Shown here in pieces: positions 42,133-46,544 of a stretch of DNA of 46,678 nucleotides (positions are counted from its first letter, which is position 1; each line of letters begins with the position of its first letter). The stretch lies in contig CAZOBP010000004.1 in NCBI GenBank assembly GCA_964577995.1, positions 1-46,678 on the forward strand, read 5' to 3'. Under the pieces are notes generated by a model. It made no database searches and had not been told where the DNA came from. It was given only the letters and a program-made list of their open reading frames with translations. The stretch is from an uncultured Anaerolineales bacterium. Its GTDB lineage: Bacteria; Chloroflexota; Anaerolineae; UBA7937; B3-Chlor. A program made the position numbers and the translations under genes.

Positions 42133-43260
42133 TCACGCCTCCGCGTCGCTGTCTTTGAGACCCAGAGCCTCGTAGATCTCGGCTTCTTCCGCCCGCCGTT
42201 TGATTCGCATGCGGCCCAGAGATCTGGCCTCAACCGAGTCCTTGACCTGGTCGTAGGTGGCGCGGCTAAGAAGAATCTGCTGCTCCTTGGCCTGCTCTTG
42301 CAGGCGGAAGGCCACATTGACGGTATCGCCGATGGCGGTGTAGTTCATCAGTGCCTGGCTGCCCACGTTTCCAACCACCGCCTCGCCGGTGTTGATGCCG
42401 AAACCGAAGTGCAGGGAGGGCTCCTGATCCTGGTGGCTGAGGCTCTCTCTTACGGCAAACGCGGTCCTCACCGCGCGCAAGGCGTGGTCAGGCTGATCGA
42501 GCGGGGAATTGTAGAGCGCCATCACGGCATCGCCCATAAACTTGTCCAGCACGCCCCCATTGGCGAAGATGCACTCCGTGGCTTGGCTCAGATACCCGTT
42601 CACCACCTCTATCAGGCGCTCAGGCGGCATCTTCTCTGCCAGCGCCGTGAACCCTCGTAGATCTGCGAAGAGGATGGTTACCTCTCGCCGCTCACCCCCC
42701 AGCTTGGCCCGTGAAGGATCGTCGATCAAGTACTGAGCCACCTGCGGCGGGAGGTAGCGCTCGAACAGTTCCCGCGTTTGCTCCTCCAGCTCCCGTATGC
42801 GCCGGTAGCTTGTCTCCAGCTCGCCGTATCTCACCTCAAGCTCGTCGTGGGCCTCAGAGAGTTCCCGCTGGAGCCGCTCCCTTTCTCGACGTAGATGACA
42901 GCGCTCCAGCACCCTCTCCAACCTGATGAACGCCTCCTGGTAGTCCAGGGGTTTGATCAAATAGTCATCCGCGCCGGCCGTGAGCGCCTTGACCGCGATC
43001 TCTTCCGAGCCGAACGCGGTCACCATCACAATGCCTATCAAGGGCTGCTGCTCCCTGATCTTCCTCAAGGTGTCCATGCCATCCAGTTTAGGCATCATTA
43101 TGTCAAGAAGAACCAGGTCCGGCACGTGCTCCTTGACGGCCTGCAACGCCTCACGACCATCTCCAGCCGTGATCACGTCATAGCCCACCCTCTCCAGAAG
43201 CTGCGCGGTCACCTCGCGAAAGGCATCATTATCATCTGCCAAGACTATGCGCCCGGTCAT
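42133..43260 (-). CDS. Response regulator receiver + coiled coil + class III adenylate cyclase
   Basis: LADDN, LLDIMMP, VTAFG, DDYLIKP; cyclase motifs ILFADLRGFT, DKFMGDAVMA, GINTG, YTAIGDTVNVAFRL (Lys/Asp pair typical of ATP specificity). Confidence 0.92.
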   Translation of the reverse strand: MTGRIVLADDNDAFREVTAQLLERVGYDVITAGDGREALQAVKEHVPDLVLLDIMMPKLDGMDTLRKIREQQPLIGIVMVTAFGSEEIAVKALTAGADDYLIKPLDYQEAFIRLERVLERCHLRRERERLQRELSEAHDELEVRYGELETSYRRIRELEEQTRELFERYLPPQVAQYLIDDPSRAKLGGERREVTILFADLRGFTALAEKMPPERLIEVVNGYLSQATECIFANGGVLDKFMGDAVMALYNSPLDQPDHALRAVRTAFAVRESLSHQDQEPSLHFGFGINTGEAVVGNVGSQALMNYTAIGDTVNVAFRLQEQAKEQQILLSRATYDQVKDSVEARSLGRMRIKRRAEEAEIYEALGLKDSDAEA

Positions 43261-43326
43261 CGATCCCTTCCCATCCCCGTCCAACCGAGAACGCAGAGTG
43301 CTGAAGGAAGAACGCTATCCACGACG

Positions 43327-43941
43327 CTATAGATAGCCTAGAGCCTTCAGCCTGTCCTCCAGTATCTGCTCCTCCTCCTCGCTGTAGACCTCGTCCCCGC
43401 CCGCGGAGGTCCGCGGTACGTAGCCCAACACCTCCAACTTGGTCAAGATCTTCCCGACGCTCTCCTCGAGACTCTCAGTATCAGTGTGCACCACGACTTC
43501 CGCATTTAGCGGTTCCTCGTAGGGATCTGAGACCCCCGTGAAGCTCTTGATCTCTCCGGCGAGCGCCTTCTTGTACAGCCCCTTGACATCGCGCTCAATC
43601 AGTACCTCGAGAGGACAGCTACAATAGACCTCGACGAAGCGCCCGATGTCCTCGCGGATATAGTCTCGCACTGCTCGATAAGGCGAGATGGCAGAACCGA
43701 TGGCCGCGACGCCATTCCGAGTGAGGAGCTTGCACACGAAGCCGATCCGTTTGATGTTGATGTCCCGGTCTTCCTTGCTGAAACCCAACCCCTTGCTCAG
43801 ATTGGTGCGGACCACGTCTCCATCCAGCACCTCCACTTTCAGACCCCTGTCCCGGAGAATGCTCTCCACAGCACCGGCAAGCGTTGTCTTGCCTGCACCG
43901 GACATTCCCGTGAACCATAGGGTGAACCCTTGCTGTTCCAT
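43327..43941 (-). CDS. cysC: Adenylyl-sulfate kinase with C-terminal acidic/RLxxLGY tail
   Basis: [50 protein letters not shown]. Confidence 0.95.
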
Positions 43942-43952
43942 GAGATACTGTT

Positions 43953-46544
43953 CTAACCCTTTCTGTAGATTATCCTCTTGCCCTGCATGTCGGCAGGAAC
44001 CGGTAGGCCCATCGCATCAAGCACCGTGGGCGCCACGTCCATGAGTTGCAGACCATCTACTTCGCCTCTGCCCTGCTCGCGAGGATCGTACATGATGAAC
44101 ACACCGTGCTGCGCGTGGTTGGCGTCGTCGGGGCCGATGTCGTTCTCCCGTGTGTGAATGCGACCGTGTCCCATGCTGCCAACCGAACGCCACGCCAGGT
44201 TGCCGAAATAGATCAAGAGATCCGGCGGCACGTTGCGGCACTCGGCGTATACATCCTGCGGCTTGTAGACCACCGTGCCGATGTTCATTCCCTTCTCATC
44301 CGTGATCTGGGACAGCTTGTGCGCGATCTCGTCTCGGACTCGCTCGTAATCCTGAGACGGGGTCACTCCCCGGGGCTCTCTCCCCCGCACATTCAAGAAC
44401 AGACGCCCGTAGTACCCGCCAGCACCCCAGGCCATGGTCCGATCCCAGTCGATCTCCACCTTCTCCAGCGGGACGATGCCGCTGGGCTCGTCCTTGACGG
44501 CGAGGTAGCCCTCCTGTTTAAGCCATTCGTTGATGCAGATGCCGCCCTCCATGTGTCTCGCGCCATGGTCCGAAACGACCATCACGATCGTATCATCACC
44601 GATCAGGCTCAAGATCTCCCCGATCTCGCCATCCAGGTACTCGTAGTACTCCTCCACGACATTCTGGTAGGGAGAGCCTGGTTCATGCTTCGGGTGCTGA
44701 GGGTCGAAGTACTTCCAGAAGGCGTGGTGGATACGGTCCACGCCCATCTCCACGAGCATGAAGAAGTCCCACTCTTTCTCACGCAGCAGGTACTTCACGA
44801 CCTCGAACCGTTTCCTGGTCATCTCGTAGATCTGTTGCAGCAGATTGTCCTTCTCCTCAGTGCGGAAGTTCTCCACGTCAAGCATGTACTCCCCCACCAG
44901 GTCCTCGATCTCCTGCTTCAAGTCAGCCGGATAGGTATACTGGCTCTGGGTGCTGGGCGTGAGGAAGGAAGTGATGATGTAGCCGTTCGTCGGTTTCACC
45001 GGGTAGGTTTGAGGCACTCCCACCAGTGAGACTTTCCTTCCCGCCCGGGAGAGGATATCCCACACCGTGTCCTCCGCCACCGCGGTTGAGTTCGCAATCC
45101 TCATCCTGTCGTAGGAATGATCGGCTCGGTTTCGGAACCCATAGAATCCAAGGCGTCCGGGATCCTTGCTGGTCATCATGGACATCCAGGCGGGAACGGT
45201 GATCGGAGGGATGGTGCTCTCCAGCTTCCCGTAGGTACCTCCCTCCATCAGCTTCCTGAGATTGGGCAGGCTTTCCCGCCACTTTTCGAAGACCAGTTGC
45301 GGCGTCGCACAATCCAGCCCAATGACCACCACCTTTCGCTGGCCGTTCGAAAGCCCACTTCCAGTCGTGGCGCTCTCTCTTCTCTTGCGCATGCCTTCGA
45401 TGAGGATCTTGCTCACCTCGGGCCGCGTGAACTCCTCGGGAAGCATCTCGCCCCGACTCACTCGCTCCCTGACCTCCGTGCCGCTCATCACCACACGGTC
45501 CTCAGGAGAGTGGGGGCAGGTCTTCACGGAGACGATCCCACCGCACTTGCGGCAATAGAACATGTGCTCGAAGAGGAGCGGCGTGATGCCTATTTCATCC
45601 CGCTGGAAGTCTTCGAAGATCAACTGCGCATCATAGGTACCATAGTAGCCACCGACGCCGGCGTGATCGCGCCCCACGATGAAGTGAGTACAGCCGTAGT
45701 TCTTGCGCGCCAGGGCATGAAGGATCGCCTCGCGAGGGCCTGCGTAGCGCATGGCCGCCGGGAACACACCGAGCACGACTCTGTCAGGCGGATAGTAGTC
45801 GCGCAGCAAAGCCTGGTAGCTCTCCATGCGCACATCGGCCGGAATATCGTCAGACTTGGTCTCCCCTACCAGGGGGTGCAGCAAGAGACCATCACAGACC
45901 TCGAGCGCCGTCTTCTGGATCGCCTCGTGAGCCCGGTGGATCGGGTTGCGCGTCTGAAAAGCCACGACCCGGCGCCACCCCCGCTGGGCGAACATGCGGC
46001 GTGTCTGTGCCGGATCGTGTCGGAACTCGGCAAACGACTGGTCAGCCGGTCGACTGAGGAGGTGGATGTCGCCACCCAGAAGCACGTCACCCTGGGCATG
46101 CAGCCGCGCAACGCCGGGGTGTGCATCCTCTGTGGTGCGGTACACCAGTTCAGCCTCTCGCTCCTTGTCGTATTCGAACCGCTCGCTCACCTCCATGATG
46201 CCCAGGATGCGCTCTCCCTCCATCAGAGCGATCTCCTCGCCTTCGCGCAGACCGTCAGCCACGTCGCGAGACACCGGCAGGGTGATGGGGATACTCCACA
46301 CCACTCCGTTGCTAAGGCGCATGTCCTGGACCACACTTTCGTAGTCAGACTTGGTCATGAAGCCCGTGAGAGGGCTGAATGCTCCCACCGCGATCAGTTC
46401 CAGATCCGACACTCCTGTGGAACTGAGATTCACTCTCTTCAAGCTGCCCGCTCGCTCCAGCGCCGCCTCTCTCAAGACGCCACGTAGCACACGATCTACG
46501 AGCGTGCCACCATGGGGAGCGATGGCTATCCCATTCCTCGCCAT
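43953..46544 (-). CDS. sat: Sulfate adenylyltransferase (ATP sulfurylase) fused to an alkaline-phosphatase-superfamily phosphodiesterase domain
   Basis: N-part [49 protein letters not shown]; C-part [46 protein letters not shown]. Confidence 0.9.

Follow-up and report, generated by a model that had tools for sequence, protein, structure and literature searches.

What does an ATP sulfurylase gain from being fused to a domain of the alkaline phosphatase (AlkP) superfamily? This question is raised by a gene near the right edge of the window, by which we mean the whole 46,678-nt stretch analysed here; the window is a complete contig of an uncultured Anaerolineales bacterium and has only 134 nt left upstream of the gene. 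The sat::alkP1 fusion gene (43953..46544; like all features described below, on the minus strand) is an uninterrupted single reading frame of 863 codons plus stop, which encodes an ATP sulfurylase (Sat), a 12-residue linker and an AlkP-superfamily domain of the family PF01663 in one 863-aa protein. Within the short upstream region that reaches the contig end (46545..46678), AAAGAGG lies 7–13 nt before the ATG. Three Pfam domains were recognised in the protein, namely PUA_2 (residues 8–164, E 1e-56), ATP-sulfurylase (residues 173–383, E 1e-97) and Phosphodiest, PF01663 (residues 405–794, E 3e-48). The same three-domain architecture was found in 120/120 of the best database homologues (790–897 aa, 63–95% identity), which come from many independent contigs, and nearly identical fused genes are present in named Anaerolineae MAGs, which rules out an assembly artefact. 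The fusion claimed in the preliminary description is thus real, and the other features that it had listed, a linker (there given as 16 residues), a PITVPAW motif with a putative Thr nucleophile and a cysC gene next to the fusion, were all recovered.

The N-terminal part (residues 8–391; 45372..46523, with PUA_2 at 46053–46523 and the catalytic domain at 45396–46028) is well recognised as an ATP sulfurylase. It matches the NCBIfam model NF003166 for sulfate adenylyltransferase over residues 8–391 (568.5 bits; cut-off 387) and TIGR00339 (459 bits; cut-off 323), as well as both PF14306 and PF01747. An 11-residue motif and VGRDHAG are present in the translation; these correspond to QxRNPxHxxH and GRD, which we take to be the defining active-site motifs of ATP sulfurylase. 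The linker (residues 392–403; 45336..45371) follows the end of the Sat-model match and precedes the first strand of the AlkP fold, and it is exactly here that relatives with separate genes have the stop codon of sat and the start codon of alkP1. Bifunctional Sat-CysC PAPS synthases (NF004040) share the product and likewise carry their second domain at the Sat C-terminus, but their second domain is an APS kinase, whereas here CysC is a separate protein and Sat is followed by a different domain. In line with this, NF004040 scored only 361 bits against a cut-off of 669 and covered only residues 24–389. A Sat-AlkP-CysC triple fusion was found neither among the 120 best homologues nor among database proteins longer than 1512 aa. 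Pfam detected no family I pyrophosphatase (PF00719) and no canonical PAPS sulfotransferase domain (PF00685 or PF13469) in the fusion protein.

The C-terminal domain, which we call AlkP1 (residues 404–863; 43956..45335; PF01663, E 3e-48), is predicted to have the fold of nucleotide pyrophosphatases/phosphodiesterases (NPPs). Its AlphaFold2 model (pLDDT 94, pTM 0.93) is closest to the Xanthomonas axonopodis (Xac) NPP (Z 30.9), ENPP4 (30.5), ENPP6 (30.2) and ENPP7 (30–31), with an rmsd of 3.2–3.3 over about 345 residues, and Foldseek matched it to ENPP1 (E 7e-18). Lower Z scores were obtained for members of the superfamily outside the NPPs, such as a PafA-type alkaline phosphatase (26), PhnA (25.7) and sulfatases (at most 26.7). 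At the sequence level, no match to the domain was found in the PDB. The predicted nucleophile, Thr449 (codon 45198..45200) in the motif PPITVPAW, is conserved almost without exception in 27 sequences and invariably in 17 orthologues, and aligns with the nucleophiles of Xac NPP, PhnA and an arylsulfatase. The predicted metal ligands (D411, D603, H607, D659, H660 and H810) show little or no variation in the alignments, so that a lack of metal ligands, which according to the preliminary description would have refuted its reading, does not apply. Downstream of the nucleophile, R471-N472-R473 (45126..45134; motif YGFRNR) form a signature of the sat-linked orthologue group; they are invariant in orthologue alignments and replaced in the paralogues of ~450 aa and ~550 aa. 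Going by its spacing after the nucleophile, N472 presumably matches the active-site Asn of NPPs. Altogether, about 97 positions are invariant among AlkP1 orthologues, including six Arg and many Trp/Tyr.

AlkP1 therefore has the fold, the Thr nucleophile and the six metal ligands of the X. axonopodis NPP and of ENPP1/4/6/7. However, it is only 14–18% identical to them and has signature motifs of its own (20 residues). The characterised NPPs are secreted or ecto-enzymes, whereas AlkP1 is cytoplasmic and without a signal peptide, fused behind a cytoplasmic enzyme; in unfused AlkP1 orthologues, the 5–20 residues that precede the first strand are too few for a signal peptide. A type I sulfatase was also considered and rejected. 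The PF00884 match is weak (27.8 bits) and lies beneath the far stronger PF01663 match, and the position of the Cys/Ser-x-Pro-x-Arg formylglycine motif reads T-V-P-A-W.

Judged by sequence and gene neighbourhood, sat, cysC and alkP1 make up a conserved module that extends over Chloroflexota and at least ten other phyla and of which the fusion is one form. An unfused AlkP1 orthologue (55–62% identity) adjoins sat and/or cysC in many Chloroflexota families, and the module also occurs in Thermodesulfobacteriota, Verrucomicrobiota, Acidobacteriota, Schekmanbacteria and others (at least 573 loci in species-representative genomes), with 53–60% AlkP1 identity across phyla. We note that gene contexts of the relatives come from our own simple ORF calling, which sometimes picked an opposite-strand frame (clusters c5 and c11). 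The fused state was gained or lost at least three times on the tree. Other fusions include CysC::AlkP1, AlkP1::pyruvate kinase::Sat and NTP_transferase::AlkP1 (a sugar nucleotidyltransferase), and these independent events point to partners that release pyrophosphate (PPi) or handle adenylates. Fusions of AlkP1-family domains to GT2 and to a methyltransferase also exist. Several paralogue groups (AlkP1, AlkP2 and AlkP~550) are all sat-linked. Some Desulfobacterota loci have the order sat-alkP1-PHP protein, in which the best model for the PHP protein is a 3',5'-nucleoside bisphosphate phosphatase, so the role of pAp phosphatase is already filled there. One archaeal homologue, with 38% identity along its entire length, is without the RNR and NDTGPDD signatures.

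Beginning 11 nt past the fusion-gene stop codon, cysC (43327..43941; 204 aa) encodes an APS kinase (PF01583, E 3e-60; NF002059, 279 bits, cut-off 244). Its product ends in a 20-residue acidic RLxALGYL tail (residues 185–204; 43330..43389), for which 80 distinct tails gave the consensus Y-[ST]-x-E-E-E-A-x-V-x-x-R-L-x-A-L-G-Y-L. The tail was kept in 81/81 close CysC relatives, and a search with the tail region matched only close CysC relatives. Within the source genome, the motif ends only CysC and three stand-alone AlkP paralogues on contigs C8, C165 and C207, and the fused AlkP1 is the only AlkP-family match without it. Tail-bearing CysC is restricted to families that have AlkP genes of the AlkP1 type or its paralogues, and at the loci examined the tail is borne by one of the two, CysC or AlkP1, but not by both (about 11 loci are without a tail on either partner). 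A similar pairing was seen in Verrucomicrobia, where a tail-less AlkP1 accompanies a tailed AlkP571, and on a Halopiger plasmid, which has one tail-less AlkP448 and tails on AlkP535, a sulfatase-fold protein and a PAPS-reductase-family protein. When AlkP1 with a tail of its own was modelled, the tail formed a helix (pLDDT about 82) after a disordered linker. The tail is common to CysC, AlkP paralogues and haloarchaeal-plasmid proteins and offers a simple handle on whether these enzymes form a complex. Five unpublished genomes turned up in two of the searches, and one of them (G145) shows the same alkP1-cysC(tail) arrangement; no claim made here rests on unpublished genomes. A terminator-like hairpin (43314..43337) overlaps the cysC stop codon, but the evidence for it is weak (one site in the consensus scan vs. 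2.4 expected by chance).

With regard to the fate of PAPS, neither PAPS reductase (PF01507) nor sulfite reductase (PF01077) was found in the source genome (84% complete). Among five module-carrying relatives (90–99% complete), PAPS reductase scored above its cut-off in none and sulfite reductase was present in one. Canonical PAPS sulfotransferases were detected in 6/6 AlkP1-carrying genomes tested, with two matches in the source genome (contigs C57 and C100) and 2–14 matches in each of the five relatives; one locus has two of them within 10 kb. As reductase genes were not found and sulfotransferases are present, PAPS serves sulfation, and dissimilatory or assimilatory sulfate reduction was rejected as the role of the module in the source genome. 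This agrees with the proposal in the preliminary description that the module works for sulfation rather than assimilation, as does the position of AlkP-domain paralogues in glycan and envelope gene clusters. One such cluster, with AlkP1 and no sat nearby, reads GT2-AlkP1-GT2-methyltransferase-flippase-AlkP558. Close AlkP1 relatives (about 50% identity) and paralogues without sat nearby also occur in Verrucomicrobia EPS operons and on haloarchaeal plasmids. One Verrucomicrobia EPS operon begins with Sat::CysC; in haloarchaeal glycan clusters, AlkP- and sulfatase-fold genes are interleaved with GT4 genes. Glycosyl- or sulfotransferases beyond the right edge, which the same description had proposed to look for, did not appear in the corresponding 9 kb of the closest relatives, where we found genes for an NHL-repeat protein, a LarA-like protein and an aldehyde:ferredoxin oxidoreductase. 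It had further suggested that APS/PAPS is channelled to a sulfo- or phospho-transfer step on glycans or lipids. Sulfation and the intact catalytic residues speak for this suggestion, but transfer by the fused domain itself is not borne out. The sole biochemistry on a PF01663 protein from a sat-cysC cluster, that of TON_1705 from Thermococcus onnurineus, reported inorganic pyrophosphatase activity.

ATP sulfurylase catalyses the thermodynamically weakest step of sulfate activation, and stramenopiles and haptophytes possess APS kinase-ATP sulfurylase-PPase fusion proteins. We tentatively favour a similar explanation for the bacterial fusion, namely that the AlkP1 domain destroys PPi where Sat makes it, and place its probability slightly short of even. 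The gene product would then be a bifunctional enzyme in the cytoplasm and part of a sulfation module that supplies PAPS. Its N-terminal ATP sulfurylase would produce APS and PPi and the C-terminal NPP-fold domain, with its two-metal site and Thr449 nucleophile, would most likely hydrolyse PPi at source and so pull the very unfavourable sulfurylase equilibrium forward. The APS kinase from the neighbouring gene would convert APS to PAPS and would probably be held on the complex through its tail, and PAPS would be spent on sulfation, not on sulfide production, by sulfotransferases encoded elsewhere in the genome. That fast PPi removal is needed by ATP sulfurylase has been shown experimentally (PMC10322725).

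By analogy with Thermococcus TON_1705 and the eukaryotic fusions, PPi is the most likely substrate. The eukaryotic proteins follow the same thermodynamic logic, with a sulfate-activating enzyme joined to a remover of its PPi by-product; however, their PPase belongs to family I (PF00719) and AlkP1 has the unrelated NPP fold, so that AlkP1 would be an analogue and not a member. TON_1705 was reportedly described as an inorganic pyrophosphatase by Lee et al. in 2009 (J Bacteriol 191:3415, as cited in PMC8268124, PMC4463584 and PMC9653972). Its gene, named as a pyrophosphatase gene, lies between those for APS kinase and PAP phosphatase/ATP sulfurylase in the TON_1704–1707 cluster (PMC4463584), and Table 1 of PMC9653972 gives a kcat of 2.1 per s and a Km of 18.8 uM. 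The archaeal sulfate-activation cluster, exemplified by Pyrococcus yayanosii PYCH_17520–17560, comprises, in this order, copG, ATP sulfurylase, a DHH pApase, a 'type I phosphodiesterase/nucleotide pyrophosphatase' and APS kinase, and the phosphodiesterase has been proposed to degrade PPi (PMC8268124). As in our locus, a PF01663-family gene adjoins sat and cysC, there is no evident reductive pathway and PPi removal is the proposed role. In contrast to the archaeal cluster, the domain here is covalently fused to Sat, the hosts are bacterial, from Chloroflexota and some ten further phyla, the operon is without DHH pApase or CopG genes and CysC carries a docking-type tail. We also note that AlkP1 is likened to TON_1705 and PYCH_17550 by shared Pfam family and gene neighbourhood, not by sequence.

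Several observations argue against PPi as the substrate. The many invariant positions, with their Arg and aromatic residues, suggest a larger substrate; the close relatives and paralogues in sat-free glycan clusters fit a tailoring enzyme better than a PPase; and the diversity of sat-linked paralogues would not be expected of a pyrophosphatase. The reported PPase rate of TON_1705 is about a thousand times below the rates of family I PPases, and PPi hydrolysis could be a side reaction of the enzyme. In addition, the source genome encodes a family I PPase-like protein (PF00719, contig C61) and an H+-PPase, and we reject the idea that the domain is needed for want of a PPase. The first three of these points would also suit a non-canonical sulfuryl (or related group) transferase with a Thr nucleophile, which would pass sulfate from APS/PAPS to a sugar or glycan precursor, with the ~450-aa and ~550-aa paralogues acting likewise on other acceptors. 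In sat-cysC-X clusters, X is the only enzyme without an assigned role, which is guilt by association, and in Desulfobacterota it is followed by the pAp-phosphatase-like PHP gene. The glycan clusters with AlkP1 or a paralogue contain no canonical sulfotransferase of their own, one EPS operon is headed by Sat::CysC, and the GT2 and methyltransferase fusions, the interleaving with GT4 genes in haloarchaea and the Arg- and aromatic-rich pocket are all consistent with transfer to glycans. We nevertheless consider such a transferase unlikely. Canonical sulfotransferases in all six genomes tested leave no missing enzyme, and the level of AlkP1 identity across phyla speaks for a small substrate that is universal. 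The one cluster member that has been assayed showed PPase activity and, to our knowledge, no AlkP-superfamily sulfotransferase is known.

It is also conceivable that AlkP1 clears a nucleotide by-product (pAp, or else PAPS/APS or the NDPs of glycosyltransferases) and so eases product inhibition of sulfotransferases. The NPP fold acts on nucleotide phosphates, AlkP1 is fused or adjacent to enzymes of adenine nucleotides (Sat, CysC and pyruvate kinase), and a dedicated pApase gene is absent from the window. However, loci that already carry a DHH or PHP pAp phosphatase retain the AlkP gene, which makes this main role less likely; hydrolysis of APS/PAPS beside its own synthase would be futile, and the choice of Sat as fusion partner, rather than a sulfotransferase, agrees better with PPi, so that we see only a slim chance for nucleotide clearance. 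A similarly small chance is given to AlkP1 as mainly a docking hub for RLxALGYL tails, which would assemble or regulate a sulfation complex with catalysis secondary. The tail-less fused domain beside a tailed CysC and three tailed paralogues, the mutually exclusive tails, the restriction of tailed CysC to families with these AlkP genes, the Verrucomicrobia and Halopiger pairings and the modelled tail helix would all fit a hub, whereas the strict conservation of catalytic residues argues for an active enzyme and some loci are tail-less on both partners. Each of the enzymatic readings could be combined with a hub role. In a combined version, which we regard as doubtful, the tail-less Sat-fused domain would be the hub of a sulfation metabolon and bind the tails of CysC and of the ~550-aa AlkP paralogues from glycan and lipid clusters, and the AlkP family would include a hitherto overlooked class of bacterial and archaeal Thr-nucleophile enzymes that transfer activated sulfate onto envelope glycans. 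A contributor to glycan sulfation in Haloferax, Agl7 (HVO_2046), might belong to the AlkP1 family. Finally, it is very improbable that AlkP1 dephosphorylates sugar phosphates in a heptose or nucleotide-sugar pathway (e.g., as a GmhB substitute) and is linked to sat only by a shared glycan operon. Genes for an HddA-like GHMP kinase and a GmhA-like isomerase do flank AlkP1 at 15 loci in total in Ktedonobacteraceae and Verrucomicrobia, but they are absent from the window and most Anaerolineae loci, and the repeated fusion to Sat and CysC would be left unexplained.

Eukaryotes are known to have joined ATP sulfurylase to a classical pyrophosphatase; bacteria have repeatedly fused it to an unrelated, uncharacterised NPP-fold enzyme. 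A function for AlkP1 would clarify how PAPS is supplied for sulfated envelope polymers in organisms without sulfate reduction, and would improve annotation across many uncultured bacterial and archaeal phyla. Our literature searches for a Sat-AlkP fusion, COG3379 or an AlkP-superfamily sulfotransferase returned nothing relevant. The COG3379-like family is large, with 16,070 clusters at 50% identity matching at E 0.001 or better, and its members bear no annotation beyond "alkaline phosphatase family protein", which is also all that the ESM Atlas gave; for the fused genes, the annotation stops at "sulfate adenylyltransferase".

The sat::alkP1 gene (43953-46544, minus strand) is a single unbroken frame of 863 residues, in which a complete ATP sulfurylase (Sat; residues 8-391, PUA_2 and ATP-sulfurylase domains) is joined by a 12-residue linker to a C-terminal PF01663 domain ("type I phosphodiesterase/nucleotide pyrophosphatase"; E 3e-48), here called AlkP1. 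The protein scored 568 bits against NF003166 (cut-off 387), and the translated Sat part reads [11 protein letters not shown] at one motif and VGRDHAG at another. All 120 of the 120 best homologues (790-897 aa, 63-95% identity) have the same three domains and come from many independent contigs, which rules out an assembly artefact and, together with the open frame and the domain matches, confirms the fusion reported in the preliminary description. Fused genes with 93-96% identity, followed by the same cysC, were found in named Anaerolineae and Anaerolineales MAGs. In the window, 11 nt separate the fusion stop codon from cysC (APS kinase), a weak hairpin of terminator type overlaps the stop codon of cysC, and the contig, which is the entire window, ends 134 nt upstream of the fusion gene. 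The gene after cysC (42133-43284, minus strand) encodes a fusion of response-regulator receiver and adenylate/guanylate cyclase domains and occupies the same place in four relatives (78-96% identity; cluster c23, loci L054-L057).

An AlphaFold2 model of the AlkP1 domain, built from 27 sequences, was confident (pLDDT 94, pTM 0.93). The closest solved folds were nucleotide pyrophosphatases/phosphodiesterases (NPPs; Xac NPP, ENPP4, ENPP6, and ENPP7) with Z 30-31 over ~345 residues at 14-18% identity, while PafA-type alkaline phosphatases, phosphonoacetate hydrolase, and sulfatases had lower structural scores; no PDB match to the domain was found at the sequence level. The metal ligands, whose loss had been raised as a possible objection to the domain, are present: D411, D603, H607, D659, H660, and H810, as well as T449, are invariant or nearly so in alignments, and T449 lined up with the nucleophiles known for NPP, PhnA, and an arylsulfatase. 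Further hallmarks of this sat-linked orthologue group are two strictly conserved motifs particular to it (YGFRNR and [14 protein letters not shown]), along with six Arg and many Trp/Tyr that do not vary. The fusion protein is cytoplasmic: the domain is placed behind Sat, and unfused orthologues leave no room for a signal peptide.

In a set of 401 Chloroflexota genomes, few families had the fused form, whereas an unfused orthologue (465-490 aa, 55-62% identity, E about 1e-190) occurred in many more, clustered with cysC and sat in either gene order. Species-representative genomes held at least 573 AlkP1 loci; the best 80 of these (53-96% identity) belong to Chloroflexota, Thermodesulfobacteriota, Verrucomicrobiota, Poribacteria, Latescibacterota, Acidobacteriota, Brocadiaceae, Schekmanbacteria, Armatimonadota, Calditrichaceae, and Gaiellaceae, and roughly half have sat, and likewise roughly half cysC, within 10 kb. 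Ardenticatenia, Caldilineae, and Roseiflexaceae have Sat::AlkP1 fusions as well. In a quick maximum-likelihood tree, the window's gene belongs to a six-member clade of fused genes, and the fusion must have been gained or lost three times or more. A full HMMER scan yielded 16,070 clusters with an E-value of 0.001 or below, and the best matches included CysC::AlkP1, AlkP1::pyruvate kinase::Sat (P0194, 1151 aa, with a pyruvate-kinase barrel), AlkP1::pyruvate kinase (P0228, 786 aa, likewise), NTP_transferase::AlkP1 (P0197, 724 aa), AlkP1::GT2, and AlkP1::methyltransferase. One possible reason for the pyruvate kinase link is ATP regeneration. A 617-aa CysC::sulfatase-fold fusion (PF01583 and PF00884; L041:11189-13042, plus strand, genome G243), directly after sat and alkP1, is a second way to couple an AlkP-superfamily domain with sulfate activation. 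In two other genomes (G297 and G313; loci L050 and L051), cysC is bracketed by two AlkP genes in the operon TauE-like permease - AlkP(488) - CysC (tailed, see below) - AlkP(462) - 77-aa ORF - Sat - 960-aa DnaJ+GT1 protein.

The window's CysC carries an acidic C-terminal tail (43330-43389, minus strand; Y-S-x-E-E-E...R-L-x-A-L-G-Y-L), in which [20 protein letters not shown] is appended to the native ...KLEVLGYV end; the tail resembles a duplicate of this C-terminal helix. An all-frame scan of the genome located the motif, apart from one chance match, in no proteins other than CysC and three free-standing AlkP paralogues of ~550 aa (contigs C8, L002:1495-3168; C207, L003:643-2295, minus strand; C165, L006:1-1308), which adjoin flippase, UPF0104-type membrane, and glycosyltransferase genes. 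The fused domain is the genome's sole AlkP-family match lacking the tail. Across the loci examined, the tail was on CysC or on AlkP1 but never on both (a 970-aa Ardenticatenia fusion has it on the AlkP1 side and an untailed CysC), and in about 11 loci neither partner had it. Tailed CysC was confined, in the phylum sample, to families with these AlkP genes, even where cysC was unlinked, and in Verrucomicrobia an AlkP571 with the tail accompanies an AlkP1 without it. For a Latescibacterota AlkP1 that bears its own tail, modelling placed the tail helix (pLDDT about 82) behind a disordered linker. We infer that the tail is a putative docking peptide that would keep CysC on the Sat::AlkP1 protein.

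The preliminary description had proposed that the fusion channels APS/PAPS to sulfo- or phospho-transfer on surface glycans or lipids, and not to assimilation. Consistent with the latter, PAPS reductase (PF01507) and sulfite reductase (PF01077) had no match in this 84%-complete genome, which encodes canonical sulfotransferases on contigs C57 and C100. Among five module-carrying relatives (90-99% complete, one a single contig), none had a PAPS reductase over the cut-off and one had a sulfite reductase. Canonical sulfotransferases were also present in five other module carriers, within 10 kb of the module in one locus. The module therefore serves sulfation. Together with the fusion and the intact residues, this supports that proposal in part, but glycosyl- or sulfotransferase genes, sought past the right edge, were absent from the corresponding 9 kb of the closest relatives.

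With regard to the AlkP1 domain itself, hydrolysis of pyrophosphate (PPi) in situ would be its most likely function, a reading we hold tentatively and at slightly below even confidence. It draws on an archaeal precedent, on eukaryotic Sat-PPase fusions, and on the fusion of AlkP1 to Sat and to an NTP_transferase, two distinct nucleotidyl transferases that release PPi. ATP sulfurylase requires rapid PPi removal (PMC10322725), and PPi degradation is the role proposed for the phosphodiesterase gene of an archaeal cluster ordered copG - ATP sulfurylase - DHH pApase - type I phosphodiesterase/nucleotide pyrophosphatase - APS kinase (PMC8268124). The bacterial module is a variant of this published, poorly characterised archaeal module, here with a fusion. 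Our confidence is tempered because the T. onnurineus counterpart TON_1705, named a pyrophosphatase (PMC4463584), is a putative orthologue linked by family and neighbourhood, its reported rate is low (kcat 2.1 per s, Km 18.8 uM; PMC9653972), and this genome also encodes other PPases. Moreover, sat is linked to each of several AlkP paralogue groups, and close relatives and paralogues of AlkP1 lie in glycan clusters without sat nearby; both observations leave some probability for the alternative that the AlkP family itself uses activated sulfate.

The single match to family I pyrophosphatases in the genome (C61:8834-9295, minus strand) lies inside a 593-aa open frame, far above normal PPase length, that may be another fusion. 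A PHP-domain protein adjoining alkP1 (L097:11564-12409, plus strand; also cluster c18, loci L065, L069, L075, L092, and L094), with 3',5'-nucleoside bisphosphate phosphatase as its top NCBIfam model (221 bits, under the cut-off of 400), may serve the bacterial module as its pAp phosphatase.

On a Halopiger xanaduensis plasmid (NC_015658.1, 35320-54636; L156), GT4 genes of a glycan cluster are interleaved with AlkP-family and sulfatase-fold genes; three of the encoded proteins end in the same tail (RLxxLGY), namely an AlkP535, a sulfatase-fold protein that is cytoplasmic, and a member of the PAPS-reductase family, and one AlkP448 is untailed. HddA-like GHMP kinase and GmhA-like isomerase genes flank AlkP1 in two distant phyla (L102, L124, and other Verrucomicrobia; L037/L073 of Ktedonobacteraceae). 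Verrucomicrobial AlkP1 lies within an EPS export operon with GT2, GT4, acetyltransferase, HlyD, OEP, and flippase genes, and the first gene of this operon in L102 is a Sat::CysC fusion.
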